Positions 14,047 to 54,357 of a stretch of DNA of 54,357 bases are shown here, one piece after another (positions within the stretch are counted from its first letter, which is position 1; each line of letters opens with the position of its first letter). The DNA is from an uncultured Pseudomonadales bacterium (GTDB taxonomy: Bacteria > Pseudomonadota > Gammaproteobacteria > Pseudomonadales > Azotimanducaceae): contig CAYZUV010000001.1 of NCBI GenBank assembly GCA_964481245.1, forward strand, positions 1 through 54,357. The letters run 5' to 3'. The translations under genes were made by a program, and so were the position numbers. A model generated the notes under the pieces. It was given only the letters and a program-made list of their open reading frames with translations. It did no database searches and was not told the origin of the DNA.

Positions 14047-14056
14047 GGAGAAACAC

Positions 14057-15536: not shown

Positions 15537-15588
15537 GTTCTGAATAAAAAAATAGATCCCGCGAGGTGGCGAACAAAAAGGGGGCGTC

Positions 15589-17776: not shown

Positions 17777-18049
17777 AAAAAGAGCCTCGTAACGCAAGCG
17801 AGAGTGCGCGCGGAGGCGCAATTGTCTCGCTTGCATGACGATCACCCTGCACCTTAGGGCGCAGCGTGCTTAGGATTAATAAAAGGTGCGCTTGTATACG
17901 CGAGTCTCCCAACGAAACTCAACGTGACTGGTAGCCTCCATCATCCAAAACGGCTGTTCGCTGGTGAGCGGGCAATTAACGGACGCAATGAGCGCGCGCA
18001 ATTGTTGCCATTCTACGATTGTGCGCATCTCAAGGAAGGTTGATTCAAG

Positions 18050-37685: not shown

Positions 37686-38243
37686 ATGAAATTCATTGCG
37701 TGGTTTGGCCTGTTTTTAGTCTTTGTTGTGATTGGGTTTACTTTGCGTGAGCAGAGAGATGACAGGTGGATTGCTGAAGGGCAAGATCAAGGTGATGCGG
37801 GGGCGTTGGGGTACGAAAGTAAAGATAAAGAAACCATGAGCAGCGTGATCCCGTTTCCAATAGAGAGCGCTATTGTTCGAGACGCGGCATCTCTCAGTTC
37901 ATTCAAGCCCGGCCAATTCTTCAGCTTGGCTAAGGAAGGAGAAGGGGACAGCGCTGGGCGTTTTCAGATTCGTGTGACCGAGTCTGAAGAGAAAATTGAC
38001 GTGATGAAGCTTAGGGGGGTGGTCGAAGGAGGAGGACAAGTTGTCATGACTTTGAGCCCGAATCTAACGCAAATTTTCTTGACGACACCTTCGGGCGCTT
38101 GGCACTTTACTGGTGATGAATTCGGAGGGGAACTCATCCCCTCAAAATCCATTGGACTCGACAATGACATTCGTAAGCCGACACTGGGCGAGAGAAAGAC
38201 GAGTGATCCGAAGCCGCCGCCGTCGCCCGCCGATCGAGGCTAG
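37686..38243 (+). CDS. membrane-anchored hypothetical protein, first gene of the surface-protein block
   Basis: N-terminal helix 'FIAWFGLFLVFVVIGF' and no recognisable domain. It ends 13 nt before the protease gene. Confidence 0.5.
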   Translation: MKFIAWFGLFLVFVVIGFTLREQRDDRWIAEGQDQGDAGALGYESKDKETMSSVIPFPIESAIVRDAASLSSFKPGQFFSLAKEGEGDSAGRFQIRVTESEEKIDVMKLRGVVEGGGQVVMTLSPNLTQIFLTTPSGAWHFTGDEFGGELIPSKSIGLDNDIRKPTLGERKTSDPKPPPSPADRG

Positions 38244-38256
38244 AGAGATAAAATTC

Positions 38257-41200
38257 ATGATAGAACTTAAACGCATATTCTTGCGGTTGATTTTGGGGTT
38301 TTACCCAGTGCTTTTTGTGAGTGCGGCGTTTGGTGGGGCATCAGTCAAAATGGTCTGCCCATGTGAGTTCGAGCAGATTGATCAAACTGTGGCGAAGGTT
38401 GAACTCTCGCTTGGTTTTATAGACGCAGTTGAAGCTTCAGACGAACTGAGGCTTGAAGTCGTCCACTTGAAGACTAAAGACCTACTCTCGGGGAGTAGTT
38501 ACTACATTCTGGGTGAGGCCAACCTCGGCGCATTCGATTTCGGACCGGACCCGATCCCAATGAAAGCGCTCATCCCGCTTCGAGCCCAGGAATTAGGTGA
38601 AGGACAACTTGGACTGCTGCTCTGGTCTAATGACAGCGATGTACCTATTGACCAAGTCTTGCTGGGTTCGCAGTCGGTCGCGATCGATGCATCTTACGGC
38701 ATTTGGTCATTTGACAGCCCGAGTATCTTCTTTTCGTCTGGACTGGAATTCGAATTTGGATTAGCCGGCGCGGAACTCAGTATTGGCGATATCCGAAGTC
38801 CTGACCTTGCTGGTCAGGAGGAAACTTGGAATTTGCAAATCGTTGTTGCCGATCAGGAAGGCTCTTACTTTCCCAAAGCTGAATTCGAAGTGACGGTCAG
38901 CTTTGATGCAGATGGTAAGGCTAGCCTCCGTTCAACGATTGATCTCAGCCATGGCTTGGATAGTCATTTGTCTGATTACGCGAACTTCACGGAAGTAGAA
39001 TTGCTCATCTATAGAAATGGCGACTTTTATCTACGCTACTGGTTGGAATCGCTCGCAGGCCAATCGGGCCCGGAACTGGTACCGCTTATCAAAGCGATTG
39101 ACGCGATATCAGATTCAGATGGTGATGGTCTGACAGACTATGTTGAGTCTCTAGTGGGCAGTTCGCCTGAAGCAGTTGATTGGTTGAGCCCGGCTGAGAT
39201 TGAAGTTGCATTTACGTATGGTGCGACAGCCGCTGAAGCCTTTGGGGATGATTTGAACGCGAGATTGGCTCACGTGATTGACGTGGCTAACTTGGCGTTT
39301 GAAACCTCTGCAGTGCCAGCGCGTGTGGCCATGACGGATCTGATTGAACTTGGCGATGACTCGGGACTGACTGCGGCGGCGCTCATCCCACAGATGGAAG
39401 TTCGAGACGAATTGTTCGCGGATCTAGATGCAAGATTCACCCGAAAACCCGATTTGATCATTCATCTCGGGCTCATTGATGTCATCGATACGGGCGGTCT
39501 AGCCAACCTTCAGGGCGGATTGAACGATGGCATATTCGACGGAGCGACTTACGCTGCAAGAGGATCCAACGTAGGTGTCGTCGGACTTGATAATTCGGAC
39601 ACGACCCTTGTGCATGAGGTGGGTCATCTCATGGGGCTTGATCACTCTCGAGTCCAAGGCACAGCAGATGGTGCCTTTCCTTGGTCTTTGGGGCATGGCG
39701 TTGACGCAGCATTCGTTACGATCATGGCTTACGCGTCGGAATTTTCAGATGCGGCAGAAGTCGCCAATTTTTCAACGCCCACGCTGATCTGCGATGGCGC
39801 AGACGCGTTGTGTGGGGTGAATCGTGCGGATCTCATTCTTGGTGCGGATGCCGCCCGCTCTCTTGCAATTACTGCATTTCAAGTGGCTGCGACATCAAAC
39901 GGTTTCACGCCTGTTATTCAATTGATAGGTGGGCCGGAGGTCACGGTTTCAGATGCTGAGGCGATAGCCGAGCTGGTCTTTACCATTTCAGATGCTGAAG
40001 ATGGTGATTTAACTACGGCTGCTGAGCGGACACTCGCCGCCTCAGCGGAAGAAGGCTTTGATTACGTTCAGACCATTCGAGTCACCGATTCGGATGGTAA
40101 TTCCGTAGAGGCCGCGCGCCGCATCAAAGTCGATGGTAGCCTGGCCTCAGGTGGTGACACGGTTGGAGGCGCCAGCGACGAGGGGTCGACTGATGCGAGT
40201 GATAGCGGAGGTTCCTCCGACGCAGGGGATGATGACGGAGTTGGCTCCGGTGGGGGTACTGATGCTGGGGTTGGCTCGGATGATACCGACGGTGATGGCT
40301 TGCCAGATGATCGGGACCCAGAGCCTGACATCGACAATTCAGAACAGCTTGCCCACTACCTCTGGGTGAAGGATAGGATGACCTGGCTAGAGGCCAGAGA
40401 CTATGCCAAGGCTCAAGGTGGATACCTCGCGTCGATTAGCAGCCAGTTAGAAAACGATCTGATCTACGCGATCGTCAGCGAAGGGTTTGACGAGAACTCG
40501 TATCAAACGCTCGGATACGCTGACGATGGGGGTAGCGCAACCTATGTGTATATCGGCGCCTCTGACCGAGCCGAGGAGGGCACGTTTGTTTGGGAGAGCG
40601 GAGAAGCCTTCAGCTTTAAAAATTGGGGGAAGGCAGAACCTGACAATTACGACGGCAATCAAAATGTGGTCGGCTTGGCGCTCGAAAACTGGCCCTATCA
40701 AGCGAGTGACAGCGATGCCTTTGGCCTAACGAGTCAGTGGAATGATATTAGCGAGACAAACGAACTGACATTCGTTATTGAATTCGATGAGGCTCAAACG
40801 GGCGGCACTGACGGGGGCTCGGGCGGGGGTACGACGGATTCGGGTGAGACGGATGGCGGCTCAACTGACGATGGGGAGACCGACTCGGGCACAACCGATG
40901 GAGGAGGCACCAGCGGAGGGACGACTGATAGCGGCGGAAGCGACGGCGGTACGGACGGCGGAACCACAGATAACGGTTCCACGGATGGCGATACAACGGG
41001 TGGTGACTCGGGGTTCGAGAGCGAAGCAGGGATCCTAGATATTGATGGCGATGGCAAGCGAGCTGCGCTTTCGGACGGTCTACTCATTATTAGACACTTG
41101 TTTGGGTTTCAGGGCACTTCTCTCATCAGCGGTGCCGTAAGTCAGAGTGCCATGGTGACAGAAGCCGTCGATATCGCCGCGATTATTGAATCTCACAGAC

Positions 41201-43065
41201 AAGATTTCGACATCGATGAAGATGGAGAGACTAAGCCGCTGACCGATGGCTTACTGATTATTCGTCATTTGTTTGGCTTCGAGGGGGCATCACTTGTCGC
41301 CGGAGCCACGAGTGCAAATAGCGCACTGACCGCGGCAGAAATCGCTGCGAACTTAGAGGCATTGGAGTCTTACACGGATGACGGCTCAGGTGGCGGCACC
41401 ACAGACGATGGCGAAGTCGACGCGGGTGGCACAGACAATGGATCGGGAACCTCCGATGGGGGGACTTCGACGACGGTTGATGTACTACTCAAGGTCACTT
41501 ATGACCGAGTCAATCCGGTGACCGATTTGAGTAATGGTTATTACCAGGCGAAGCTCGATTATGATGCCATCGAGTCCCTACCAGGTCGCTTTTTGAGCGT
41601 CGAGGTCATCGACGCTGACACTGACCAAACGTTCGATGGTGATTGGATGACCAGTGCTGAAGGGTTGGCATCAGGCCAATTGCCGGTTGATCGTTCGTTC
41701 TATTTCAAGATTCGCGCGAAAAGCGAGGTGTCAGACGCACAAGCGAAATGGTCGGTCAGTGTTCACGATAACCAGGGCAGCATCAATGTCGCTTCTTATC
41801 CGCAGTACGTCGCGATCTCGGATACGTTTACGACCAGTGCCGACCGTTCGATCGAAGTCGCGATCAAGAGCGGCTGGACAGGCACAGGTTACACGGCGGA
41901 GCGGGCCGCGGCGCCCTTCGCCATCATCGACACCATAATTGATGCCATGGGGTATATGGCGCGCAATTCGAGCGGTTTGGAGTACCCACCGCTCGAAATT
42001 TATTGGAGCAAAGACAACACTATCGCAAAAATCGGCACATCGTTTTACTCGGGAGGGGTAATATACATCCTGGGTGGCGTCGATGAGGACACCGACGAAT
42101 ACGACGAGCACGTCATTGTTCACGAGTGGGGCCATTACCTCCAAGACCGACTGTCACGAGACGATAGTCCAGGTGGCCCCCATGGCTCAGGTGATATTCT
42201 GGATCCAAGAATCGCCTTCTCTGAAGGTTGGGCTAACGCGTTATCTGGAATCGTTTTGGGCGATTCTGATTACAAAGACACCAATGGTGCAGACCAAGCC
42301 GAAGGTTTCTTCTTGCCTATGGAAGAAGGATTCCCCTCTAGCGTGGTTGAAGTAACCGCTGGATGGTTTTCTGAGGACAGCGTTGCAGAGATCGTTCTCG
42401 ATCTTTTTGACGGGAACAATGATGCGGAAGACGCGGACACAGTCTCGTTGTCGATAGCTGAGATGACTAGCGCGTTGGTTGATAAGGTGCCTGATACACC
42501 CGTAGCAACCACGATATTTAGTCTCGTGACGCCGCTTATCTCAGCGAACCTGGATCAAGAAACTGCGATCAGGGCGCTCCTGAAAAACCATAGCATCGCC
42601 CTGGAAGCAGGTGAGATAGACGTCTACGGGAGTCACGAACTGGTTGTTAGTGGTGGCGTTACCGACAACGCGCTGCCCATTTTTGCTCCTATAACTGTTG
42701 ACGGCGAGGCAGTTCGAGTCTGTCAGGACAACACACATACACCAGAGGACTACGTTGCCTCAGAACCCGATGCCAACAAGTTAGGCAACCGAACCTTGGG
42801 TAGGTTTTCAGTGACTGAATCTGGCAGCTTTGTTTTCTCAGCGACGTCGGGTGTTCAAGGCGGGTTGGGTCGTTCCGACGATCCTGATTTATTGGTCTAC
42901 AAACTGGGGCAACAAATTGCCTATAACAGTAATTCTGGATCAGTGAGCGAATCTTTAGATGATTTGACGGTTGGAGAGTACTGGTTCGTGCTCTATGACT
43001 ACGGATTCCTGGCTGGCAAGCAATCCTCTGCGCCTTGCCAGTTAGTGGAGATCAACAGAAAATGA
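38257..43065 (+). CDS. 1602-aa secreted multidomain protein: metzincin protease, C-type lectin, dockerin-like pair, second HExxH protease, PPC domain
   Basis: Signal peptide after the ATG at 38257. 'HEVGHLMGLDH' (39613-45) with Met-turn 'TIMAY'. CTLD 'WLEARDYAKAQGGYLASI...EPD...WNDIS'. Two 'DIDGDG....L.DGLLIIRHLFGF' segments. 'HEWGH' (42121-35) with downstream 'EGWAN'. C-terminal PPC-like 'GEYWFVLYDY'. Confidence 0.8.
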   Translation: MIELKRIFLRLILGFYPVLFVSAAFGGASVKMVCPCEFEQIDQTVAKVELSLGFIDAVEASDELRLEVVHLKTKDLLSGSSYYILGEANLGAFDFGPDPIPMKALIPLRAQELGEGQLGLLLWSNDSDVPIDQVLLGSQSVAIDASYGIWSFDSPSIFFSSGLEFEFGLAGAELSIGDIRSPDLAGQEETWNLQIVVADQEGSYFPKAEFEVTVSFDADGKASLRSTIDLSHGLDSHLSDYANFTEVELLIYRNGDFYLRYWLESLAGQSGPELVPLIKAIDAISDSDGDGLTDYVESLVGSSPEAVDWLSPAEIEVAFTYGATAAEAFGDDLNARLAHVIDVANLAFETSAVPARVAMTDLIELGDDSGLTAAALIPQMEVRDELFADLDARFTRKPDLIIHLGLIDVIDTGGLANLQGGLNDGIFDGATYAARGSNVGVVGLDNSDTTLVHEVGHLMGLDHSRVQGTADGAFPWSLGHGVDAAFVTIMAYASEFSDAAEVANFSTPTLICDGADALCGVNRADLILGADAARSLAITAFQVAATSNGFTPVIQLIGGPEVTVSDAEAIAELVFTISDAEDGDLTTAAERTLAASAEEGFDYVQTIRVTDSDGNSVEAARRIKVDGSLASGGDTVGGASDEGSTDASDSGGSSDAGDDDGVGSGGGTDAGVGSDDTDGDGLPDDRDPEPDIDNSEQLAHYLWVKDRMTWLEARDYAKAQGGYLASISSQLENDLIYAIVSEGFDENSYQTLGYADDGGSATYVYIGASDRAEEGTFVWESGEAFSFKNWGKAEPDNYDGNQNVVGLALENWPYQASDSDAFGLTSQWNDISETNELTFVIEFDEAQTGGTDGGSGGGTTDSGETDGGSTDDGETDSGTTDGGGTSGGTTDSGGSDGGTDGGTTDNGSTDGDTTGGDSGFESEAGILDIDGDGKRAALSDGLLIIRHLFGFQGTSLISGAVSQSAMVTEAVDIAAIIESHRQDFDIDEDGETKPLTDGLLIIRHLFGFEGASLVAGATSANSALTAAEIAANLEALESYTDDGSGGGTTDDGEVDAGGTDNGSGTSDGGTSTTVDVLLKVTYDRVNPVTDLSNGYYQAKLDYDAIESLPGRFLSVEVIDADTDQTFDGDWMTSAEGLASGQLPVDRSFYFKIRAKSEVSDAQAKWSVSVHDNQGSINVASYPQYVAISDTFTTSADRSIEVAIKSGWTGTGYTAERAAAPFAIIDTIIDAMGYMARNSSGLEYPPLEIYWSKDNTIAKIGTSFYSGGVIYILGGVDEDTDEYDEHVIVHEWGHYLQDRLSRDDSPGGPHGSGDILDPRIAFSEGWANALSGIVLGDSDYKDTNGADQAEGFFLPMEEGFPSSVVEVTAGWFSEDSVAEIVLDLFDGNNDAEDADTVSLSIAEMTSALVDKVPDTPVATTIFSLVTPLISANLDQETAIRALLKNHSIALEAGEIDVYGSHELVVSGGVTDNALPIFAPITVDGEAVRVCQDNTHTPEDYVASEPDANKLGNRTLGRFSVTESGSFVFSATSGVQGGLGRSDDPDLLVYKLGQQIAYNSNSGSVSESLDDLTVGEYWFVLYDYGFLAGKQSSAPCQLVEINRK
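40350..40790 (+). other. C-type lectin-like domain (cysteine-free, EPD / WND motifs)
   Basis: 'MTWLEARDYAKAQGGYLASISSQLENDLIY', 'YIGASDRAEEGTFVWESGEAFSFKNWGKAEPDN', 'WNDIS'. Confidence 0.65.
41035..41370 (+). other. dockerin-like duplicated Ca-loop/helix module (copy in the giant protease)
   Basis: 'LDIDGDGKRAALSDGLLIIRHLFGF' and 'FDIDEDGETKPLTDGLLIIRHLFGF'. It has the same architecture as 28665-28995. Confidence 0.55.
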
Positions 43066-43628: not shown

Positions 43629-43744
43629 GATATCAGCAATGGTTTTGCGGCGAAGGAGCGTCTGGCCGCGGGACGGGTCTTGCAAGCTTGTAATTAGTGT
43701 TGAATGGTTTCAAAATCGTACTTGAAGCAGTGAAGGGTTCCCCA

Positions 43745-46700
43745 ATGTTTAAATCTTATCAATTCTTTAAAAATATGGTTTTGTCGTTGATTTTCGCAGC
43801 TGCTGCGAGCGGTGCGCTGGCAGCAGAACAAAAAATCACAACCGATCCAAGCAACACGGATGTCAAGGCAGGACAGACAGGTATAGCTTTGGCCCTAGGT
43901 TATTCCTCTACTGATAATGAACAAACGACTGGCCTGGGAGTGAAGATTTTCTTTGACTCGACGCAGGTAACATTTGTCAGCCTTGCTTCGAGCGCGGAGG
44001 TTGAAGACTTTATCATCGGAATCACCGAAACCCCCGATTCGATATCCACGGATGACAAAGATCTTGATGGCGATCCTAAAACTGATAAGTTCGCGAATAT
44101 CGCGGTCAGTAGCTTCAACGGGAAGTTTCCAGGTAGTGGTGACTGGCCGGAAAGTGGGCCTTTGCCTTTCGCCACGATCACCTTCGATTTGGCAACAACT
44201 GCGCAAGAAGACACTATTACTGCCATTAATTATGTCCTTGATGGAGCTGCTGGTTATGACACTGCGGCGGAATCCGCAACGATCACAATTAAGGGTGACG
44301 AAATTCCACCCGAGATCACAGCTTCAGCGACTTCGGTAACCATAGAAGCCGAAGGGGCTTACACACCACTGAGCTCTGAGCAGTTGACCGAATTTCTGGC
44401 AGGCATCTCGGCAAGCGATAATATTCAAGGTGATATAAGTTCCGATTTGGTCGCTACAATAGATGGGGATACAGCTGAACTGTTGCCCGTGGGTGACTCA
44501 ATTATTCAGTACGATGTTAAAGATTCCAGCGGGAATGCCGCGGAAAGTGTCCAGGTTACAGTTACAGTTGTGGATACAACTGGTCCTACAATACTTGGCG
44601 CAGTGGACGTTTCTTTCGAGGCAACGGGACCAAATGGCATTTCAAGCGAGGATCCGACTGTAACCGCGTTTGGGGACTCAGTGACTGCGCTTGACTTGGT
44701 CAGCGGTGAAGTAGAGGTGATCCCAACCGTTGGAGGGGAAGCACTCCCCGAGTACTTCCCTATAGGTACAACCACGGTCGAATTGAGTGCACAGGATGCA
44801 TCGGGTAACCCTACGACAGGGTCATTGGTTGTGACCGTAGTCGACACCACTGCACCGGCGATCGTCTCGGCTGCTGGATTGACACTGGAAGCCACGGGCC
44901 CAACGGGTTACACGGGAACGACCGATGAGGTGACCGCAGCAATTGAAGTCACTGACTTGGTTGATCCAGCCCCGGTGGTCACTTTGGCTGAAGGCGTAAG
45001 CACGCCGTTCCCTCTTGGAGTAACGTCAGTTGCCGTCACAGTGACAGATAGCGCTGGAAATGCGGCCCAGGGTACTGTTCCTGTAACCGTTGCAGATACA
45101 ACAGGTCCAGCGTTTGCTGGCGCCAACACCTTGATTTTGACTGTTGATGAAGAAGTGCCGGTTGCTAGCTCTGATGAACGTGTGGCGGCTTGGCTTGAAG
45201 GCATATCAGCGTCCGACCTGGTCGATGGCGAAGTTGAATTTACTTACTCCGCGCTGCCTGCAGAGTTCCAAGTAGGTGAAACGACGGTCACGTTCACGGC
45301 TTCGGATGCGGCCGGCAACACCACAAAAGAGGAAGTCATTGTGCTTGTTGCGGTAGGGCCGAGCGTCAAGGTCGCGGCTGCGATTACGGTGGTTTCTGTA
45401 GATGGTGAAGCGGTGCCTGCATCGCAGCCGTTGATCGCTGCATTCATCGAAGCAGCAACGGCGACTGATTTCTCAGGCAATACGCTCGATGTAACGAATG
45501 ATGCTCCAGACTCCTTCGCCGTCGGCGAAGAAACGGTGGTGACCTTTACCGCGGTTGATGCCGATGAGCGCCAGGGCCAGAACACCTCGACGGTAACCAT
45601 TGTTGCCGCGAGTGGTGATAAGGATACCGACGGTGATGGCATCGACGACCTGTATGAGGTGGAAGAGGGACTTGATCCCAACGATGCTGAGGACGGGGAA
45701 GGAGATGCAGATGGCGATGGCCGCAGCAATCTGGATGAGTACTTGGAAGGTACCGATCCTAATGCTGATGATGTGAAGCCTGTCGTCACAGCACCAGCAG
45801 ACGTGTCGGCTGACTCGACGGGTCTTGTGACCAAGGTCGCACTCGGGGATGCAACCGCGGAGGATGTATTGGACGGCGAGTTGACGGCAACGCCTGATAA
45901 CCCAGGGCCTTATGCACCAGGTACATATACGATCACGTGGTCAGCAACCGACGCAGCGGGCAATGTCGGTATAGATACCCAGACAGTGACGGTACGTCCT
46001 CAGGTGACGACTGTGCCCAAGCTTCGAACGGCAGAGGGCAAGACTGTGATGCTGGACGTTGTCTTAAACGGTGCAGCGCCCGCCTATCCGGTGGAGATTC
46101 CGGTGACGTTGGGCGGTACCGCAACGGTTGATGAAGACTACACGGTCGATGCTGAGGTGGTCACGATCGCTGAGGGTCGTAAAGGTATGCTGACACTGAC
46201 CATCTTGAATGATGAACTTGAAGGCGAGGGAGCCGAGACCATTGAAGTGATGCTGGTTGACCCTGCAGCCAACGCGGTGCTTGGATCTGCCAAGATGTCG
46301 ACGATCACCATTATTGAAGAAGCAGCACCGCCGGTCTTGAAGATCACGGTGACGCAGGGTGATTCGAAAGGCAAGCGTGTTTCTGCTGGCGGTGGTGCCG
46401 TGAGTGCCATGGTGAGCATTGTTGACCCGAACGGTGAGCACACGATCGATTGGTCTGGATCCAATGAAGGCCTTGAGTCTTCCACCGGCACCGATACGGA
46501 TACGTTCACGTTTGATCCCTCCGCGCTTGAAGCTGGCTCTTATGATCTGATCGCGGTAGTGACCGATAGTGGTATTGCTGATACCACCTTCACCATTGGC
46601 GTTACGGTTCAAGTGACGGCAGAAGAGGTCGAGGCGGACTCTGATGGTGATGGTATTCCTGACAGCAAGGATACGAGTGACCAAGGCAACGTGATCGCGT

Positions 46701-47356
46701 TGAACGCTGATGCCGGAACTGCGGCTGCTCAGGCGGACGAGGGCGTCTCGATCGTGATCGGAGACGTTGCGAATAGCTCAGGCAATGCTGGGATCGGTAT
46801 TACCGAGGAACAACTCGCAACGACACCTGGTGGTGATGATGCGGATTATGATTACCCTGCAGGCATCTTGGACTTCGAGGTTCAAGATCTTGCTGAGCCA
46901 GGTACTTCGTTCAGAATCGTGATCCCGCTTGCTGCTGCCGTCCCAGAGGGTGGTGTGCTCCGCAAATTCACGGAAGCCAACGGTTGGAATGACTTCGTGG
47001 TTGACGACAACAACGCAGTTGCCAGTGCGCTCGGCGAAGACGGCGCCTGTCCGGATCTTGGTTCCGAGCTTTACGTCGCGGGCTTGACAGCAGGAGACAC
47101 GTGTATGCAATTGACGTTGCAGGACGGTGGTCCGAACGATGCTGACGGTGAAGTGAATGGTTCTTACAAAGATCCAAGTGGTATTGCTGAAGCCACGCCT
47201 GTGCAAGTGGTTGAAATCAATGCGGACGGTTACAAGAGTCGTAAGAAAGTAGGTGGTGGTTGTTCGGTGGTCGAAGGCTCAGCCGATACAGGCCTCCTCG
47301 TCTTGTTACTACTTGGTTTGGCAGGGCTGCTGCGACGTCGATTCGTCGCAGCTTAA
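43745..47356 (+). CDS. 1203-aa surface protein: cohesin-like N-domain, HYR/Ig repeats, TSP3 repeats, Calx-beta, C-terminal Cys-containing sorting signal
   Basis: Signal peptide 'LIFAAAASGALAA'. Repeated 'V(V/A)DTT(G/A)P' HYR starts. 'DKDTDGDGIDD...DADGDGRSNLDEY' TSP3. Calx-beta 'GGTATVDEDYT...LNDELEGEGAE'. Tail 'GGGCSVVEGSADTGLLVLLLLGLAGLLRRRFVAA'. Confidence 0.8.
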   Translation: MFKSYQFFKNMVLSLIFAAAASGALAAEQKITTDPSNTDVKAGQTGIALALGYSSTDNEQTTGLGVKIFFDSTQVTFVSLASSAEVEDFIIGITETPDSISTDDKDLDGDPKTDKFANIAVSSFNGKFPGSGDWPESGPLPFATITFDLATTAQEDTITAINYVLDGAAGYDTAAESATITIKGDEIPPEITASATSVTIEAEGAYTPLSSEQLTEFLAGISASDNIQGDISSDLVATIDGDTAELLPVGDSIIQYDVKDSSGNAAESVQVTVTVVDTTGPTILGAVDVSFEATGPNGISSEDPTVTAFGDSVTALDLVSGEVEVIPTVGGEALPEYFPIGTTTVELSAQDASGNPTTGSLVVTVVDTTAPAIVSAAGLTLEATGPTGYTGTTDEVTAAIEVTDLVDPAPVVTLAEGVSTPFPLGVTSVAVTVTDSAGNAAQGTVPVTVADTTGPAFAGANTLILTVDEEVPVASSDERVAAWLEGISASDLVDGEVEFTYSALPAEFQVGETTVTFTASDAAGNTTKEEVIVLVAVGPSVKVAAAITVVSVDGEAVPASQPLIAAFIEAATATDFSGNTLDVTNDAPDSFAVGEETVVTFTAVDADERQGQNTSTVTIVAASGDKDTDGDGIDDLYEVEEGLDPNDAEDGEGDADGDGRSNLDEYLEGTDPNADDVKPVVTAPADVSADSTGLVTKVALGDATAEDVLDGELTATPDNPGPYAPGTYTITWSATDAAGNVGIDTQTVTVRPQVTTVPKLRTAEGKTVMLDVVLNGAAPAYPVEIPVTLGGTATVDEDYTVDAEVVTIAEGRKGMLTLTILNDELEGEGAETIEVMLVDPAANAVLGSAKMSTITIIEEAAPPVLKITVTQGDSKGKRVSAGGGAVSAMVSIVDPNGEHTIDWSGSNEGLESSTGTDTDTFTFDPSALEAGSYDLIAVVTDSGIADTTFTIGVTVQVTAEEVEADSDGDGIPDSKDTSDQGNVIALNADAGTAAAQADEGVSIVIGDVANSSGNAGIGITEEQLATTPGGDDADYDYPAGILDFEVQDLAEPGTSFRIVIPLAAAVPEGGVLRKFTEANGWNDFVVDDNNAVASALGEDGACPDLGSELYVAGLTAGDTCMQLTLQDGGPNDADGEVNGSYKDPSGIAEATPVQVVEINADGYKSRKKVGGGCSVVEGSADTGLLVLLLLGLAGLLRRRFVAA
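43823..44300 (+). other. cohesin-like beta-sandwich candidate at the adhesin N-terminus
   Basis: About 155 aa whose strand pattern recalls cohesins: 'VKAGQTGIALALGY...GLGVKIFFDSTQVTFVSL...FANIAVSSF...PFATITFDL...TITAINY...ATITIKG'. Resemblance by eye only. Confidence 0.3.
47252..47353 (+). other. C-terminal protein-sorting signal (GGGC motif, TM helix, Arg cluster)
   Basis: The tripartite 'GGGCS' / 'GLLVLLLLGLAGLL' / 'RRRF' lies at the extreme C-terminus, 16 nt upstream of a CPBP protease gene. Confidence 0.7.
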
Positions 47357-47372
47357 TTCCCTGGGGGTTGTC

Positions 47373-47837
47373 ATGGCGGGACGGCTTGCCGCAGCCATGT
47401 CACCTCAAGGTTTAGAAAAGAGCGCCCTCCTGGGCGCTTTTTGTTTTTATCTAGTCTTATTTTTTGGTTTTGATATTCAGCCTGACCTTCTGTGGTGGCT
47501 GAGGCAGCCCTTGAATGCGATGGTTCTGATCATTGTCTCGCCCGCATTAGAAGAGTGGATCTTCAGAGGTTGGTTGTTTGATCTGGTTCGGAATTGGAGC
47601 CAAACCCTTAAGCAGGAGCTTCTCAGTGAACGCCTCCTCTCTATCCAAAATGCCGTCACAACGAGTTGCTTCTGCGCACTCCACAGCGTGCTTCGTGACC
47701 CTCTCACGGGGCTGCTTGTCTTGGGCCCCTCACTGCTCCTTGGCTTCATGCGGGATCGTCAGGTCTCGTTACCTGTATTAATGATGATTCATGGAGTCTG
47801 GAATGCTGGTTGGTTCTTCTTTTACCCACCAGGTTAA
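47373..47837 (+). CDS. CPBP-family (CAAX-type) glutamic intramembrane protease, small form
   Basis: All three CPBP motifs are present: 'EEWIFR', 'FCALH', 'HGVWN'. About 4 TM helices, 154 aa. Confidence 0.8.
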   Translation: MAGRLAAAMSPQGLEKSALLGAFCFYLVLFFGFDIQPDLLWWLRQPLNAMVLIIVSPALEEWIFRGWLFDLVRNWSQTLKQELLSERLLSIQNAVTTSCFCALHSVLRDPLTGLLVLGPSLLLGFMRDRQVSLPVLMMIHGVWNAGWFFFYPPG

Positions 47838-48069
47838 TTTGGAGGAGATCTTGCCTCGGATTGACCCACTGATTTCAGAATCCAGCATAAACCTGGGCTG
47901 GGCACGCCCAAGATTGATCGGTGTTCGCTAAATCGAAGTTCAACGCGGCCATACTGAGACCCAGTAGGCCTGAGCGAAGCCGCGGGCTTTACACTCATCA
48001 GTGCCCATAGGCAATGCGAGTTTAATTTGTCACAATGAATCGTTTCAGGTCTCGTTTCAGGAGTGCGCT

Positions 48070-50271
48070 ATGACTCGGTTTTTCTCATCATCACTGCTCT
48101 TCAGTATCGTGTTGGGCAGTGGTGCGGCACTCGCCGCGATCTCGCCAGGACAGCAAGTTGCTCTCCAAGAAAGTCTTGAGGCGGGTGACGGTGCTGGCGT
48201 GACGCTGGCCACCAATCGCATTCTGTCTAGTGGGTTATCGGCTAACGATGTTGGAGCCCTTGAGCAAATCGCATCCTTCCTATCTGAGGCGGGCTATCGA
48301 GATGCAGCTGGCGGTATTCTGGTCAGAGCCGCCGAATTGGTTGACGCACCCAATACAGAAAGCGACCGAGAAACATTGGTGCGTATCGCCGAGGCTTTGC
48401 AGGCGATCAATTTACGCTCGACAGCTCAAACTGTCGCGACCCGGGGTATTAAGGTTACGGGGAAATCACAAAGCGATCAGCTTAATGCGCAAGGTTATCA
48501 ATTACTGGGTGATCTAGCGTTTGAAAACGGTGACCTTGATGCCGCCTCTGAAGCTTATGCGAATGCTTCTGCCAGTCAAACCGCGAGCCTCCCCACGGAT
48601 TTGCTGGTAAGGCAAATTAAATTAGCCGCTAGTCAGGGAAATCGAGCTGAGATCCGTTCAGGTCTTGGTCGTCTTAATGCACGCCTAGTGGTGGAAGTGT
48701 CTACATCTCATTTGCTGGACGTGGCCGCCGCTTTGGTGAACTCCGGTGAGCGCGAGTTTCTTCCAGATGCGCTCTTGCTGATCGAGCGGGCAAGCGCCCA
48801 AGGCGACGCTGGAAATCTTGCCGAGCGGGCGGAGCTCGCACTACTCCGGAGTCAAATATCAGAGGGAATGGGTCAAACGACAGAGGGCCTCAAACAGGCG
48901 CGCGCGGCGCTTGCAGATCTTGGTGATAATGCTTCTCCTGGGCTTGCTTATCGCGTGTATTGGCAGATCGCGCGTCTTCAGAAAGCGTCTGGGGATTTGA
49001 CTGCTTCGATCAAAAATTACGAACGGGCGATAGCGAAGCTTGACGCAATTCGTGGCGTTCTATTGCAAGGCAGTACGCTTGTTTTCAGAGAGAGGGTACT
49101 GCCGGTCTATCAAGAATATTTGGATTTATTGCTTGCGGAGGCTGATCGGCCCAGTGCTAGAGAGGTTTCCTTAGCAAAGGTACAAGCAACGTTAGAAGCG
49201 CTTAGCGCGTCCGAAATTCTCGACTACTTTGATGACAACTGTGTCCTACCACAGAACACGATGAGCCTTACGGATGTTCCCAACGGTACGGCTGTCGTGT
49301 ACTCAGTCACAGTCTCCGAGAAGCCGGTTGTTTTGGTTCGTTCTTCTAGTGGGCTCTACCGATTCGCCACAGGCTCAACCGCATCTGATTTGGAGCGCAT
49401 GGCGCTTGCCTTCAGGGAAAGTATTACCAATCCCGGCACATCTGAGGCGGTGTATCTGAACCAGGCCCAGACGCTTTATCAAAGTCTGCTTGGTGAGGCG
49501 GGTCCTTTTCTTAAAGACGAGGGCATAAAACGCATCATCAGCGTGCCTTCAAGTTATCTTCGACTCATTCCTATGGCTGCACTGCATGACGGCGATTCTT
49601 ATCTCTTAAATCAGTACGAATGGTCGACCACGTTGGGGCTCGGTTTGACCGACGCGTCATCGTTTAAAGCATCGCGAACCAGCGCCTTTTTGGGCGGTGT
49701 TTCTGATGCCGTCCAAGGGTTTGAGGCATTACCCGGGGTCGAGACGGAATTGGCGGGCCTGCGAACCGCGTTGCAAAGTGAGCCGCTTCTCAACGAGCGT
49801 TTTTCAGTTGCAGACGTGACGCGACGGTTGGCCGAAGGGGAGTTCGGCATCGTTCACCTAGCGACCCACGGTTATTTCGATGGGGATCATGCGAATTCGT
49901 TCCTGCTTGCCCATGATGACAAGATCACCCTGGATCGACTCCAGAGCACTGTTGGAGCAAGACGGTTCTCTGGAGACGCCTTGGATTTATTGGTGTTAAG
50001 TGCATGTGAAACCGCCAAGGGCGATGAGCGCGCGGCACTGGGTCTCGCTGGTGTTTCGCTCAAAGCGGGTGCTCGAAGCACGCTGGCTTCGCTTTGGCCC
50101 ATTGCCGATGAGGCAACAGCAAAACTGATGAAAACCTTTTACGAGGGACTGCAAGCGGGAGAAACCAAAGCACGAGCGCTGCAGCTTGCGCAACAATCAC
50201 TCTTGTCTGATCCGGAATGGGCGCATCCGAATTATTGGAGCCCCTATCTGATGATTGGCAATGCGCAGTAA
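48070..50271 (+). CDS. exported TPR-like / CHAT-domain protease-fold protein
   Basis: Signal peptide 'LLFSIVLGSGAALAA', helical-repeat N-half, CHAT C-half with His 'VHLATHG' and Cys 'VLSACETA' and 'ASLWPIAD'. RBS AGGAG lies 6 nt before the ATG. Confidence 0.85.
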   Translation: MTRFFSSSLLFSIVLGSGAALAAISPGQQVALQESLEAGDGAGVTLATNRILSSGLSANDVGALEQIASFLSEAGYRDAAGGILVRAAELVDAPNTESDRETLVRIAEALQAINLRSTAQTVATRGIKVTGKSQSDQLNAQGYQLLGDLAFENGDLDAASEAYANASASQTASLPTDLLVRQIKLAASQGNRAEIRSGLGRLNARLVVEVSTSHLLDVAAALVNSGEREFLPDALLLIERASAQGDAGNLAERAELALLRSQISEGMGQTTEGLKQARAALADLGDNASPGLAYRVYWQIARLQKASGDLTASIKNYERAIAKLDAIRGVLLQGSTLVFRERVLPVYQEYLDLLLAEADRPSAREVSLAKVQATLEALSASEILDYFDDNCVLPQNTMSLTDVPNGTAVVYSVTVSEKPVVLVRSSSGLYRFATGSTASDLERMALAFRESITNPGTSEAVYLNQAQTLYQSLLGEAGPFLKDEGIKRIISVPSSYLRLIPMAALHDGDSYLLNQYEWSTTLGLGLTDASSFKASRTSAFLGGVSDAVQGFEALPGVETELAGLRTALQSEPLLNERFSVADVTRRLAEGEFGIVHLATHGYFDGDHANSFLLAHDDKITLDRLQSTVGARRFSGDALDLLVLSACETAKGDERAALGLAGVSLKAGARSTLASLWPIADEATAKLMKTFYEGLQAGETKARALQLAQQSLLSDPEWAHPNYWSPYLMIGNAQ

Positions 50272-50281
50272 GGGGATGATC

Positions 50282-51832
50282 ATGACGATATTTAAAACAT
50301 TATTGGTTCTCCTCCTCACGCTCATTGCGCACACGATCAAGGCTGACGCTATGGTGGATGGCGTGGTGCTAAAACGTGTGGAGTTCAGTGGTGCAACTGT
50401 TTTTTCGAATCGAGATTTACAGACCGCCCTCCCAGTGAATGAGGGCGATCGCGTCTACGCTGAAGATATATTGGCCATGGTCGATGCGATTACAGCGCTC
50501 TATCAAAATGCCGGTTATATCACCTCGGGTGCAACGCTAAGCAACCAAGATGTGAGCGATGGCATTATTCGAATCCAGGTGATTGAAGGGCAGTTGACGG
50601 ATATTTCCCTTAGCACCACAGGCAGGTTGAGTGATGCATTCGTCCGAGGCAAGGTGAAGGCCAGCACCTCCGGCCCCGTCAAGCTGGCGGATTTACAACG
50701 AGCCATCAGCCGCCTTGAAAGGGAAGACACCATTAGCCACGTGAAGGGTTCCTTAAAACCGGGCACCGAGCGTGGCCAATCTGTTTTAGATCTGGAAGTG
50801 GTCGAAGCTGATGCGTTTTCATTAACGATTGGCGGCAATAATTATCGCAGTCCCAGTGTGGGCGAAGGGCAGGCCGAAGTGGCGCTCGAGCACCTCAACC
50901 TGCTCGGTAGGGGAGATCGACTTAACGTGGGCTATCAAGACACCGATGGCGTGGATGCTTATTCGGTCCGTTATGACTTGCCGCTGCTTCGGCTGAATTC
51001 TCGGCTGGCGGTCTTCCACGCCAAAGGTGACACCCTGGTCGTTGAAGAGCCGTTTGACGAAATTGCGCTCGAGAGTGAGACCGACACCACGGGTTTCCAG
51101 TTAACAAGCGCCTGGAAAGATACCGGCACGCATCGCTTCTCGAGCATTATCGGCTATGAGCAAAAAGAGAGCATGACCACACTCCTAGGGATGCCATTTG
51201 ATTTCTCTCCCGGGTCTCGAGGGGGCGTTACGGAAGCCTCGGTTTGGAGCCTGGGCGTTGAATGGGCGAGGAGCGGCGATAACAGTGGTTTTGCGCTGCG
51301 ACTCACTGGCCGAATGGGCAGTGATGAAAATGATGCGCCCAATCCGCAGGGGGTTGATGGCGATTTCAGCGTGTTTCGTTTGCAGAGCCAATACGTGCAT
51401 CGCATAGACGAAGCTTGGCAACTGAATTTTGGTCTGAGTGTTCAGGAAACCGGTGACACCCTGCCAGCCTTCGAGCGAATCGCGCTCGGAGGGCACGATA
51501 CGGTCAGGGGCTACCGTGAGAACCAGCTGCTTAAAGACTCAGGCGTCCTGTTCAATGCGGGTATGACGCTCGCGCTTCTTCAACCCGACGCACCACGGTC
51601 CCTCGGGGTGAAAGGGCACCTCTTCTATGACTATGGCCGAGGCGAGAACAGCGAAGTATCACTGAATGTTGACACGAAAGGCGACATCAGCAGTGTCGGC
51701 GTGGGGATTACGGCGACGTATGCCGGACTGACATTCAGGCTGCAAAAGGCACATCGGCTGGGCGACAAGTCCACGCTGGGTGATACGTTTCAGGACAATG
51801 GTATTCATTTGGGGGTGAGCTATGAATTCTAA
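50282..51832 (+). CDS. ShlB/FhaC/HecB-family two-partner secretion transporter (TpsB)
   Basis: Signal peptide, POTRA 'LKRVEFSGATVFSNRDLQ', 16-strand barrel-like C-half 'RGYRENQL', terminal 'VSYEF'. Confidence 0.85.
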   Translation: MTIFKTLLVLLLTLIAHTIKADAMVDGVVLKRVEFSGATVFSNRDLQTALPVNEGDRVYAEDILAMVDAITALYQNAGYITSGATLSNQDVSDGIIRIQVIEGQLTDISLSTTGRLSDAFVRGKVKASTSGPVKLADLQRAISRLEREDTISHVKGSLKPGTERGQSVLDLEVVEADAFSLTIGGNNYRSPSVGEGQAEVALEHLNLLGRGDRLNVGYQDTDGVDAYSVRYDLPLLRLNSRLAVFHAKGDTLVVEEPFDEIALESETDTTGFQLTSAWKDTGTHRFSSIIGYEQKESMTTLLGMPFDFSPGSRGGVTEASVWSLGVEWARSGDNSGFALRLTGRMGSDENDAPNPQGVDGDFSVFRLQSQYVHRIDEAWQLNFGLSVQETGDTLPAFERIALGGHDTVRGYRENQLLKDSGVLFNAGMTLALLQPDAPRSLGVKGHLFYDYGRGENSEVSLNVDTKGDISSVGVGITATYAGLTFRLQKAHRLGDKSTLGDTFQDNGIHLGVSYEF

Positions 51833-54200
51833 ATGGCAGTTAAAAGCGGCTTTGCTTGGTTGCCTAGCGGCAACGCCCCTTCATGCGGAAATCACGCTGC
51901 AAGACACTGGGCAGACCCTGACCGGGGATATGCAAATCACCCAAGAGATGGGCATAACAAAAGGCACCAACCTGCTGCATAGTTTTCTCGCCTTTAACAT
52001 TGATGCTGGCGAGTCTGCGACCTTCTCTGGAAGCAATAGCATCACCAACATCATTGCGCGGGTAACTGGCGACTCAGCGAGTCAGATTGATGGTCTTTTG
52101 CGCTCCACCATTTCGGATGCGAACCTATTTTTGATTAACCCGAATGGCATCGCCTTTGGCGAAGGGGCTAGCATCGATATTAACGGTAGCTTGCATTTGT
52201 CAACGGCCAACAGCATCACCTTTGCAGATGACTCAGTGCTGTTGGTCTCTGATACCGGAGCATCTGGGCTTACCACGGCTGCACCTTCTGCTTTTGGGTT
52301 TGGTGAGGCGAGTGCCGGCATCACGTTTAATGGCACCCAGATCTCCGTTGAAGATGGCGATAATCTTGATGCGATCTCACTGATTGGCGGCGACGTCACA
52401 TTGACTGAGAGCTCGATCAGCCTCTCAGGTGGTGATATCGAAATCGTAGCCACCATGGGTGAAACCATGGTCTCGCTTGAGCAGGCAGCGCGCGATTACT
52501 CGATGATCTCACTAGGCGACATTACCGTCAGTAACGAGGCAGCCGACGGTAACAAAATTGATTTGGATGCCAGCGGCGAGTCCGCCGGTGCGATCCATTT
52601 AGCGGGCGATACGGTCACCCTCGATGCTGCGTTTGTGTTTTCAGACACCCAAGGCGTAGGGACTGGCGGAATGCTTGAAGTGGTCGCGGAAACCGAACTC
52701 GTCATGAGCAATGGCGCGCGCATCACGACCGATACCACCGACGGCGGCATCGGCGGCGACGTGAATATTAATGCAGGGTTGGTTTCAATGATTGGTAAGA
52801 ACACTGCGATTGCAGCGAGCACCGTTGAGGCAGGCGGTGCGGCGGGTGAAATCATGATCACGGCTGATGCCATCAGCATTGAAGATCAAGCCCAAATTAG
52901 TTCGGTTTCAAGTACTACTTCCGATGGTGGTGACATTACTTTGAATACGGGCACATTAGTATTGGCCTCTGGGGGGCAAATAACTGGCCAGGCAGCCTCT
53001 CGAGGGGACGGAGCGAACGTAACTATTGTCGCGTCTCAGAGTGTAAGCATCGATGCGACTGGTCTGGCCGCAGGAGATGCTTCAGGTATTCGAGTTGATA
53101 GTATTAATTTCTTGCCGTTTTTTACCGGTGGTGATGCGGGCGATATCACAATTACTAGCCCAAAGCTGACGCTTACAGGGGGAGCTGTAATTACAGCAGA
53201 AGCCATTTTGCCGTCTTCAGGCGCACCTGGCGCGATTACACTGAATGTGGACGATTTGAATATTCAGAGCGGTAGCACGGTATCAACGTTGACGGCTTCG
53301 AATGCGGATGCAGGCGCAATCACCATCAATGCGAACACTATCGATCTAGCGGGTGCCGGTTCTGGACTCAACTCCACCGCACGTCGAGGCGGTCAGGGTG
53401 GCAGCATTATTATTAACGCAGCTGAACTCGCTATGTCGGGTGGGGCTGTGGCAGACACTTCAACCGAAGCGGAGGGCGGCGCGGGTGAGATTGTGATCAA
53501 TCTCAGTGGCGGCTTTGTTTTGACGGGCAGCGGTACGACTCTCGCGAGCCAAAGTTCGGACGCGGGTCTCGGGGGCTCAATCTCTGTTGCGGCTGAGACC
53601 ATTCAATTCCTCGACAACGGCGTGCTCAGCGTGACGGCAAATGGCGGCGGCGACGCGGGCAATATCACACTCGCGGCGACAGACCGGCTCCACATTTTTG
53701 ATGGCGCCGAAGTTCAAACCAACGCGGTGAATTCCGGTGGCGGTAATATCACGATCGAAGTCATCGATACGATCTATCTGCGTGATGCTACGCTCACCGC
53801 CTCAGCGGGCGGCAGCGAAGCTGGCGACAACGGTGGGAATATCTTTATTGACCCCATCTTTTTAATTCTCGATAACGCGTCGATCGTGGCTCAAGCCTTC
53901 GCGGGTAACGGGGGCATCATTGAGCTGATCTCTGAAAACTACATTGCGGACATTAATAGTTACCTCGATGCCTCGAGTGAACTGGGTAATGATGGCGAGG
54001 TCAGAATTACGTCTCTTGATAACAGCGTCACTGGCGTACTTGGAGTGCTCAGCGCTGACTTCGATGCGGTTTCAGATATTTCGGGTGATGCGTGTTCTGC
54101 TAGGAATGCTGCGAATCGAAGTAGCCTTATGATAGATCAGCCGATGGGTCGGCTTTCTGCTCCTGGTGATCTGAGAGCTCCCGCCGGAGAAGATTGTTGA
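51822..54200 (+). CDS. TPS-domain (filamentous hemagglutinin N-terminal) beta-helix exoprotein, short TpsA-like
   Basis: Signal peptide. TPS motifs 'NLLHSF..FNI', 'NIIARVTG...SQIDG' and 'LFLINPNGIAFG'. Gly/Asn/Thr-rich beta-helix repeats. It overlaps the tpsB end by 11 nt. Confidence 0.85.
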   Translation: MNSKWQLKAALLGCLAATPLHAEITLQDTGQTLTGDMQITQEMGITKGTNLLHSFLAFNIDAGESATFSGSNSITNIIARVTGDSASQIDGLLRSTISDANLFLINPNGIAFGEGASIDINGSLHLSTANSITFADDSVLLVSDTGASGLTTAAPSAFGFGEASAGITFNGTQISVEDGDNLDAISLIGGDVTLTESSISLSGGDIEIVATMGETMVSLEQAARDYSMISLGDITVSNEAADGNKIDLDASGESAGAIHLAGDTVTLDAAFVFSDTQGVGTGGMLEVVAETELVMSNGARITTDTTDGGIGGDVNINAGLVSMIGKNTAIAASTVEAGGAAGEIMITADAISIEDQAQISSVSSTTSDGGDITLNTGTLVLASGGQITGQAASRGDGANVTIVASQSVSIDATGLAAGDASGIRVDSINFLPFFTGGDAGDITITSPKLTLTGGAVITAEAILPSSGAPGAITLNVDDLNIQSGSTVSTLTASNADAGAITINANTIDLAGAGSGLNSTARRGGQGGSIIINAAELAMSGGAVADTSTEAEGGAGEIVINLSGGFVLTGSGTTLASQSSDAGLGGSISVAAETIQFLDNGVLSVTANGGGDAGNITLAATDRLHIFDGAEVQTNAVNSGGGNITIEVIDTIYLRDATLTASAGGSEAGDNGGNIFIDPIFLILDNASIVAQAFAGNGGIIELISENYIADINSYLDASSELGNDGEVRITSLDNSVTGVLGVLSADFDAVSDISGDACSARNAANRSSLMIDQPMGRLSAPGDLRAPAGEDC

Positions 54201-54234: not shown

Positions 54235-54357
54235 ATGTTTGTCTTTAGGAATCTAAGATCCTCTTTGATTTTGCTAACGTCTATGTTGATCCTCAGCACC
54301 GCAGTTCAGGCTGAGGATCAATATGAATCGAATGACTCCATCGCAGAGGCTACCTAT
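54235..54357 (+). CDS. 5' fragment of a secreted protein (runs off the window)
   Basis: The ATG at 54235 opens 41 codons to the window edge: 'MFVFRNLRSSLILLTSMLILSTAVQA' signal peptide, then 'EDQYESNDSIAEATY', which resembles the start of PPC/pre-peptidase-type domains. Confidence 0.4.
   Translation, partial: MFVFRNLRSSLILLTSMLILSTAVQAEDQYESNDSIAEATY

Follow-up and report, generated by a model that had tools for sequence, protein, structure and literature searches.

A predicted periplasmic TPR-CHAT protease genetically coupled to a two-partner secretion pair in a Pseudomonadales bacterium and across bacterial phyla

Background

Two-partner secretion (TPS, type Vb) relies on a TpsB transporter, whose hallmarks are a signal peptide, POTRA domains, a 16-stranded Omp85/ShlB barrel and a conserved L6 VRGY motif, and on the TpsA exoprotein that it exports. 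Here, we analysed a stretch of 54,357 nucleotides (hereafter the window) from an uncultured Pseudomonadales bacterium of the Azotimanducaceae (assembly GCA_964481245.1, contig CAYZUV010000001.1, positions 1 to 54,357 of the forward strand), in which a TpsB gene and a gene for a TpsA-like exoprotein are preceded by a gene for an exported protein combining a TPR-like region with a CHAT domain. We examined these three genes, hereafter the trio, in the light of the best described secretion systems and CHAT proteins.

Several TpsA proteins keep their C-terminus in the periplasm. In HMW1 and HxuA of Haemophilus influenzae, a small C-terminal periplasmic domain carries a disulfide that locks TpsA inside its TpsB pore (PMC5422565). 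The Pseudomonas aeruginosa protein CdrA is likewise held in its TpsB, CdrB, by a cysteine hook, and is freed when the periplasmic cysteine protease LapG, a transglutaminase-like enzyme (BTLCP) encoded away from cdrAB, directed at a TAAG site and controlled by the cyclic di-GMP receptor LapD, cuts its periplasmic tail. In Bordetella, the C-terminal part of FhaB is periplasmic during secretion by FhaC, and proteases cut it off no later than release; these proteases, among them the subtilisin autotransporter SphB1, are unlinked to fha. According to a review of TPS systems, genes for TpsA maturation proteases lie outside TPS operons, and operon-encoded ones have not been seen.

On the CHAT side, a TPR superhelix followed by a CHAT domain with a His-Cys dyad is found in Csx29 of the type III-E CRISPR complex craspase and in separase, both acting in the cytoplasm or nucleus upon activation by RNA-guided complexes or securin removal, respectively. 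DdvA, an anti-sigma factor of Myxococcus, has a periplasmic TPR-CHAT domain; it is membrane-anchored, fused to a zinc anti-sigma domain and paired with a sigma factor of the extracytoplasmic function (ECF) type. Taken singly, TPS systems, CHAT proteases and TpsA proteins anchored by a tail are thus known, while their fixed combination is undescribed in the literature searched: a full-text search, with most subscription journals outside its coverage, found no description of a gene set joining CHAT and TPS, and a search on DUF928 and CHASE2, two domains that recur below, returned a survey of WD40 proteins as its sole match.

From the evidence presented below, we hold with moderate confidence that the trio belongs to a type Vb system of three components, in which an exported TPR-CHAT enzyme would cut the periplasmic tail of an anchored TpsA protein. 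More broadly, the trio probably represents an undescribed way to cut or control a surface protein from within the envelope.

Results and discussion

Linkage of CHAT, TpsB and TPS genes across phyla

The gene order CHAT-TpsB-TPS was found in all close relatives of the CHAT protein examined (53-99% identity; marine metagenomes and metagenome-assembled genomes (MAGs) labelled 'Pseudomonadales bacterium'), which proves little about linkage because the flanking genes are shared too. More telling arrangements came from greater distances. Another Pseudomonadales MAG (L006) carries the same trio between wholly different flanks, in Gallionella a DUF928 gene and a Crp-type gene accompany TPS-TpsB-CHAT-CHASE2 cyclase, and Verrucomicrobiia display the order TPS-CHAT-CHASE2 cyclase-DUF928-TpsB-cNMP-binding (cNMP, cyclic nucleotide monophosphate). 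Both families are large, with between at least 1,211 and more than 1,300 relatives retrieved for the TPS protein, homologous over their full length, and more than 1,300 for the CHAT protein.

One genome per GTDB species was scanned with a 12-sequence TPS alignment (A2) and a single peptide pattern, which provided 79 loci. These were screened with hidden Markov models derived from the window and from three reference loci. The single pattern makes this set a biased sample, in which cyanobacteria were not recovered; these were found through a plasmid collection. A CHAT gene was present in 44 of the 79 loci. Where each flank measured 5 kb or more, it was present in 27 of 39 loci, and where such loci also had a TpsB gene (hereafter full-flank TpsB-positive loci), in 24 of 26. 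TPS genes devoid of CHAT were mostly orphan paralogues, from which TpsB was missing as well. At least 25 gene orders and orientations were counted among 40 CHAT-positive loci, with a median distance of 13 nt between CHAT and the nearest TPS or TpsB gene. Taken from the opposite side, the association was recovered in all three members picked from the CHAT family (Competibacteraceae, Alphaproteobacteria and NC10), each adjoined by TPS genes. It is specific to a clade rather than a general property of CHAT proteins, since a distant TPR-CHAT protein of 1120 aa used as a control (P0022) showed no linkage to TPS.

In the plasmid collection, tblastn returned 89 records, mostly cyanobacterial. One Pseudanabaena locus is annotated ShlB/FhaC - CHASE2 - FHA-N-terminal - CHAT - DUF928, and equivalent gene sets occur on pNPUN03 of Nostoc punctiforme and on the alpha plasmid of Nostoc PCC 7120. 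An initial annotation of the window, made from its sequence, had stated that similar neighbourhoods are common in cyanobacteria and had named conservation across phyla as a check to run; the former agrees with these plasmids, and the latter was borne out by the full-flank TpsB-positive loci and by the spread of the module over eight or more phyla, among them Pseudomonadota, Desulfobacterota, Nitrospirota, Verrucomicrobiota, Acidobacteriota, NC10 and Cyanobacteriota.

Furthermore, three Desulfobacterales proteins of 1,523-1,681 aa (L047, L050 and L068) unite, in a single chain, a signal peptide, a TPS domain, a beta-helix, a tail motif described below, a TPR region and a CHAT domain. Read as Rosetta-stone fusions, they join the products of the window's first and third genes, with the first TPR helix placed about 10 acidic residues past the tail motif, that is, with TPR-CHAT attached at the end of the tail. 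Judged from these genomic patterns, functional coupling of the three genes is close to certain. The opposite possibility, that the genes are coincidental neighbours or that an anti-phage or toxin system including the CHAT gene happens to lie beside a TPS pair, draws on the frequency of CHAT domains in defence systems and on marginal PADLOC matches to BovA (E ~1e-3). These matches are insignificant and limited to the catalytic core, defence CHAT proteins are cytoplasmic whereas those studied here are exported, and coincidence would have to account for linkage in nearly all full-flank TpsB-positive loci, over this range of phyla and arrangements, as well as for the gene fusions. We therefore consider this possibility highly improbable, and the defence-system reading, for which PADLOC yielded the marginal BovA matches alone, was rejected.

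Some loci depart from the common layout. One of them (L091, metagenome contig SRR23814903_62076, positions 3331-18559) encodes, in order, a CHASE2 cyclase, a 317 aa protein, a Peptidase_C14 protein, a CHAT protein (852 aa), a Big_2 protein, a TPS protein (1,358 aa) and TpsB, and represents a variant module with two caspase-fold proteases. At a Competibacteraceae locus (L092), an inserted toxin-antitoxin pair of the PemK type (8149-8720) separates the TPS gene from CHAT.

An exported TPR-CHAT protein with a conserved catalytic dyad

Pfam and NCBIfam detected no family besides CHAT in the first protein of the trio, apart from a TPR_8 match below threshold (24.1 bits for a cut-off of 25.7). Its AlphaFold2 (AF2) model (pLDDT 84, pTM 0.81) displays a helical superhelix followed by an alpha/beta CHAT domain. 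By sequence, the protein had no match in the PDB, and its structural relatives were recovered by fold search alone. The best Foldseek matches were the TPR-CHAT protein Csx29 (8eey_B, 7.5e-15), the periplasmic TPR-CHAT domain of DdvA (8rw5, 2.6e-12) and separase (7nj1, 6e-10), with sequence identities of 13-15%; Csx29 and DdvA aligned over the whole length of the protein, and TPR repeats were matched as well. From the model, the TPR-like superhelix is presumed to be the substrate-binding domain.

A signal-peptide-like N-terminus was found in 47 of 54 CHAT proteins linked to TPS loci, because of which the enzyme is predicted to work outside the cytoplasm. The seven others include the three fusions, which carry the signal peptide of their TpsA part instead, and proteins with mis-called starts. 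Of the same 54 proteins, 98% keep H600 and 96% keep C646, which is invariant in a further alignment (A3). As the dyad is conserved to this extent, sequence comparison indicates that catalysis matters for this predicted protease. The exported TPR-like/CHAT protein with an intact His/Cys dyad described in the initial annotation was recovered with both catalytic codons verified.

DdvA offers a precedent for a TPR-CHAT protein working in the periplasm. The CHAT protein of the window differs from it in being soluble, with TPR helices directly following a cleavable signal peptide of 22 residues, and in having no adjacent sigma factor gene. No CRISPR context (gRAMP/Cas7-11) surrounded CHAT at any locus examined, its neighbours being TpsB and TPS genes.

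Export by the Sec pathway also bears on the suggestion that the CHAT protein itself leaves the cell, be it as a cargo of TpsB, as put forward in the initial annotation, or as the effector domain of the system. In the fusions, CHAT indeed occupies the C-terminal place in which CdiA-type TpsA proteins carry their effector domains. However, stand-alone CHAT proteins have ordinary Sec signal peptides and lack a TPS domain, the recognised targeting signal for TpsB; a TPR-CHAT protein of about 700 aa, once folded in the periplasm, would need to be unfolded to cross the TpsB pore; and split forms outnumber fusions 51:3. We consequently disfavour this suggestion and judge a secreted CHAT quite unlikely.

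A two-partner secretion pair with a conserved C-terminal tail

The second protein consists of a signal peptide, a POTRA domain (aa 30-103) and a ShlB/Omp85 barrel (aa 165-516), as recognised by Pfam (POTRA_2 1.1e-20; ShlB 3.9e-26; Omp85 3.3e-10), with the VRGY motif of L6 at aa 408 (51503-51514). Its sequence matches in the PDB were CdiB (6wim) and FhaC (4qky), in agreement with its earlier designation as a ShlB/FhaC-type TpsB, and it contains no cysteine. The third protein carries a signal peptide (aa 1-22) and a TPS domain (aa 32-228; Pfam TPS 6.4e-33, NCBIfam TIGR01901 2.4e-20) with NPNG at aa 106, and no other Pfam domain. Its AF2 model (pLDDT 85, pTM 0.84) is an uninterrupted right-handed beta-helix from aa 24 to aa 736, for which EtpA, HMW1 and HxuA (8cpk, 2odl, 4i84, 4rm6) are the closest solved structures in both sequence and fold, ahead of FHA and HpmA. 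By their sequences, the two proteins have the gene-level hallmarks of a two-partner (type Vb) secretion pair.

Beyond the beta-helix, the TpsA-like protein ends in a disordered tail of 56 residues, which contains the sole cysteines of the mature protein, C758 (Cys1) and C792 (Cys2). The initial annotation had likewise described a 792-aa TPS-domain beta-helix protein with a cysteine-containing tail. Over the family, the tail is built from a cap (ASS.LG.DG.V.I.SP), a linker of about 23 residues, a cysteine in the motif C-[AS]-A-R, and then SS[FL]-V-V-x-G-R-G-G-x-P-x-x-P; the TPS proteins of cyanobacteria carry the same tail. Cys1 is invariant in the 36 aligned sequences and was found in 98 of 107 open reading frames (ORFs). 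Cys2 is the last residue throughout the window's clade; of the complete tails, 55-60% have it 1-8 residues before the C-terminal end, and about 35% lack it. Sequence comparison thus designates the single-cysteine tail motif, rather than the beta-helix or a cysteine pair, as the family-wide signature of the TpsA partner. A Cys1-Cys2 hook co-evolving with CHAT was considered and rejected, Cys2 being unrelated to the presence of CHAT (31 of 55 tails from CHAT loci and 23 of 43 from loci without CHAT).

Several genomes of Methylococcales, Desulfobulbus, Parabeggiatoa and Nitrospirales (L042, L039, L054, L087 and L088) encode two or three tail-bearing TPS paralogues in tandem, all with Cys1, often with a single TpsB and with no more than one CHAT. 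A single transporter and a single protease may thus serve several exoproteins in these genomes.

A proposed mechanism and its relation to described systems

Based on these elements, we propose that TpsB exports the beta-helical TpsA-like protein N-terminus first and that its conserved, disordered tail would stay on the periplasmic side, as should be expected by analogy because HMW1, HxuA, FhaB and CdrA retain their C-terminus there. The stopper in the window's clade would probably be a loop closed by a Cys758-Cys792 disulfide, as in HMW1, HxuA and CdrA. The Sec-exported TPR-CHAT protein would then bind the tail through its TPR superhelix, for which it is the obvious candidate since TPR domains bind extended conserved peptides, and its His600/Cys646 dyad would cleave the tail, deciding whether the beta-helix is tethered to the cell, or matured or shed. 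The tail is thus presumed, by analogy with these anchored exoproteins, to be both periplasmic anchor and CHAT substrate. The initial annotation had suggested that CHAT could process or release the TpsA-like protein in the periplasm or at the surface: signal peptides, the conserved disordered tail, the fusions and the HMW1, HxuA and CdrA precedents favour the periplasm, while we infer cleavage itself.

In its transporter and its beta-helical exoprotein, which is nearest in TPS domain and fold, the trio resembles HMW1/HMW1B, HxuA/HxuB and EtpA/EtpB (the last from enterotoxigenic Escherichia coli), and it shares with HMW1 and HxuA two cysteines in a short C-terminal region. It differs from these three systems by the lack of a glycosyltransferase or TonB receptor partner, by the exported TPR-CHAT gene in its operon and by a tail motif of its own (C-x-A-R...SS[FL]); Cys2 is dispensable in about one third of the family. 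With FhaB, it would share a periplasmic C-terminal part subject to proteolysis, but a tail of 56 residues takes the place of the large prodomain. The same functional logic as in CdrA and LapG is proposed here by analogy. By contrast with LapG, the candidate protease has a caspase/separase fold and is operon-encoded, and in other lineages it is paired with a CHASE2 cyclase (cAMP/cGMP). Neither TAAG nor AAG occurs in the C-terminal region of the TpsA-like protein (aa 731-792), and no LapD-type partner appeared among the annotated neighbours of the trio, which are unrelated genes, although no search was aimed at LapD.

Instead of cutting the tail, CHAT might retain it, with the TPR region as a clamp forming a non-covalent stopper, or might act as a sortase-like transpeptidase moving the tail onto an envelope component, in the manner of PorU and the glycosylphosphatidylinositol (GPI) transamidase; clan CD does include transpeptidases. 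In fusions L050 and L068, where no second tail cysteine precedes the TPR region, the bulky TPR-CHAT part is the only possible stopper in place of Cys2, and many tails devoid of Cys2 still keep a motif resembling a TPR-binding peptide. The conservation of the dyad, however, argues for catalysis and makes a pure clamp unlikely, whereas for a transpeptidase no acceptor molecule and no feature resembling a sorting signal was identified, and the characterised CHAT enzymes, separase and Csx29, are all hydrolases. We regard both versions of this retention scheme together as unlikely.

Accessory genes and a possible signalling function

Most lineages add to the TpsB/TpsA/CHAT core a CHASE2 cyclase, found in 17 of the 26 full-flank TpsB-positive loci, and a DUF928 protein that is exported, often together with a cNMP-binding regulator. 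The 22 DUF928 ORFs identified (for instance L007 9215-9949 and L009 17308-18150) are exported and linked to the module, and their mature start bears a conserved Y-x-P-P-x-R-G-A-P-x-x-R-x-G-G-G-T-R-G motif, loosely similar to the G-R-G-G-x-P-x-x-P of the TpsA tail. This resemblance suggests that DUF928 could be a second ligand of CHAT or of CHASE2. The CHASE2 cyclases of Sinorhizobium meliloti react to a signal of protein nature, which is perceived via an outer-membrane beta-barrel protein (PMC7529298, PMC13001267).

These observations fit a role in proteolysis-gated envelope signalling, in which the beta-helix would serve as a surface antenna and CHAT would cut the tail, DUF928 or the CHASE2 domain, thereby making or removing a periplasmic ligand read by the CHASE2 adenylate/guanylate cyclase and, downstream, by a cNMP-binding regulator of the Crp type. 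The trio of the window would then be a reduced form, with its partner encoded elsewhere or its signalling lost. This scheme overlaps with the three-component system proposed above and differs from it in the purpose of cleavage. The frequency of CHASE2 cyclases, the S. meliloti precedent, the exported DUF928 with its tail-like motif, the cNMP-binding regulators near several loci and the recurrence of the same partner genes in Gallionella, Verrucomicrobiia, NC10, Alphaproteobacteria and cyanobacteria all speak for it. On the other side, the connection between CHAT and CHASE2 is drawn from gene neighbourhood, and no gene for CHASE2, DUF928 or a cNMP regulator was found in the window or near the trio in the marine Pseudomonadales clade (L001-L006, L011-L015), so the minimal unit would work without them. 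We consider such a signalling role possible, though doubtful. Equally tentative is its extension, that the core is the outer half of an unrecognised proteolysis-gated pathway linking outer membrane and cytoplasm, with the trio of the window as a derivative lacking the cyclase; in that pathway, an event at the surface beta-helix may license CHAT to cut the periplasmic tail or DUF928, and the product may be read by the CHASE2 cyclase and a Crp-type regulator.

Returning to the three-component secretion system with cleavage of an anchored tail, several points weigh against it. The disulfide hook is, on the sequences compared, no universal target of CHAT, because Cys2 is missing from about a third of the tails and does not correlate with CHAT. 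A cut between Cys758 and Cys792 would leave the fragments linked by the disulfide, and release would not be automatic. The accessory genes, through their recurrence, hint at signalling rather than simple shedding as the purpose, and at DUF928 or the CHASE2 domain as a possible CHAT substrate in place of the tail. Lastly, co-transcription of the CHAT, TpsB and TpsA-like genes is deduced with their spacing as its sole basis.

Anatomy of the locus and neighbouring genes

The coordinates of the locus are collected in Table 1 and include the 10-nt gap and the 11-nt overlap given in the initial annotation. All three proteins have Sec-type signal peptides as read from their N-termini. For the CHAT gene, the longest ORF opens at a GTG (48001); the ATG at 48070 was preferred because a classical signal peptide directly follows it. 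An AAGGGG stretch is likely to be the ribosome-binding site of the TpsB gene, and the overlap makes translational coupling of the TpsB and TpsA-like genes likely. The operon promoter would probably lie in the intergenic region upstream of CHAT. A scan of this region for the sigma-70 consensus gave no match, and scanning for promoters and terminators was uninformative on operon boundaries.

Table 1. Coordinates of the features of the locus and of the fusion proteins (positions in the window, except for the fusions, which are given in their own loci)
Feature	Coordinates	Strand	Basis or remark
Intergenic region 5' of the CHAT gene, 232 nt	47838..48069	+	between MrtJ stop (47837) and CHAT ATG
TPR-CHAT gene, 733 aa	48070..50271	+	ATG at 48070, stop TAA
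Sec signal peptide of the CHAT protein, 22 residues, cleavable	48070..48135	+	sequence reading; MTRFFSSSLLFSIVLGSGAALA, cleaved before A
TPR-like alpha-helical superhelix, aa 26-386	48145..49227	+	AF2 (19 paired helices, model span aa 6-386), Foldseek
CHAT domain, aa 466-731	49465..50262	+	Pfam PF12770, 3.4e-56
Catalytic His600	49867-49869	+	codon checked
Catalytic Cys646	50005-50007	+	codon checked
CHAT-TpsB spacer, 10 nt, ggggatgatc	50272..50281	+	Shine-Dalgarno-like AAGGGG across the stop codon
TpsB gene, 516 aa	50282..51832	+	ATG at 50282
Overlap of TpsB stop and TpsA-like start, 11 nt	51822..51832	+	
TpsA-like exoprotein gene, 792 aa	51822..54200	+	ATG at 51822
Disordered tail, 56 residues, aa 737-792	54030..54197	+	AF2 pLDDT 35-45
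Cys758 (Cys1), in the window motif C-S-A-R...RSSL	54093-54095	+	codon checked
Cys792 (Cys2), C-terminal residue	54195-54197	+	codon checked
Start of the following secreted-protein gene, truncated by the end of the window	54235..54357	+	signal peptide MFVFRNLRSSLILLTSMLILSTAVQA, YESNDS motif
Fusion protein L047	4642-9213		
Fusion protein L050	267-5309		
Fusion protein L068	1554-6599		

Downstream of the trio, the secreted-protein gene reported in the initial annotation was retrieved with its signal peptide. Its D-Q-Y-E-S-N-D-S stretch is typical for the start of PPC (pre-peptidase C-terminal) domains, and its counterparts in L001, L002 and L005 encode PPC/TSP_3 proteins, while no such gene lies beside the trio of L006. 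Since it is syntenic in close relatives only, this gene is probably outside the system.

From about 32 kb to its end, the window forms an island of exported and surface proteins. Within it, an exported protein with Sel1 repeats and a Peptidase_C14 caspase domain (32433-34094, forward strand; 1.2e-23) is followed 171 nt later by a 406 aa protein with an Autotransporter beta-domain (34266-35486, forward strand; 6e-35) and a passenger of only about 100 residues, which makes this the second case in the window of a protease with repeats and a caspase fold being paired with a type V beta-barrel. Farther on, a 1,650 aa protein (38113-43065, forward strand) combines a reprolysin-like (M12B) metallopeptidase with a C-type lectin domain; the L001 protein at the matching position shows Peptidase_C13 and TSP_3 matches instead. 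Immediately upstream of the trio, a 1,219-aa surface protein with HYR/Ig repeats (43697-47356, forward strand) ends in a JDVT-CTERM sorting signal (NF033191), and is accompanied by its cognate CPBP-family intramembrane protease MrtJ (47253-47837, forward strand; NF033192, 70.9 bits, just below the 75-bit cut-off). The listed start of the MrtJ ORF, which overlaps the upstream gene, is probably too far upstream, since homologues measure 149-154 aa. This JDVT-CTERM/MrtJ pair is syntenic with the trio in close relatives only.

Conclusions

Our results describe a caspase/separase-fold protease genetically bound to a TPS pair, whereas the only release mechanism that is understood well, that of CdrA by LapG, relies on an unlinked and unrelated protease. 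Organisms that can be cultured and genetically manipulated carry the module (Nostoc punctiforme PCC 73102, Nostoc PCC 7120, Geobacter sp. OR-1 and Undibacterium isolates). Should the mechanism proposed here be correct, CHAT would be a third dedicated partner for a type V secretion subclass, a soluble periplasmic CHAT protease would gain, in the TpsA tail, its first natural substrate, and the linkage to CHASE2 and DUF928 would give a handle on what CHASE2 sensor domains detect. If the signalling pathway is true, it would provide the first natural ligand for CHASE2 domains and a bacterial envelope counterpart of the switch proteolysis operated by separase or craspase. For marine Pseudomonadales, the trio designates a candidate regulated beta-helix protein, displayed at the surface or shed, inside a larger island of exported proteins.

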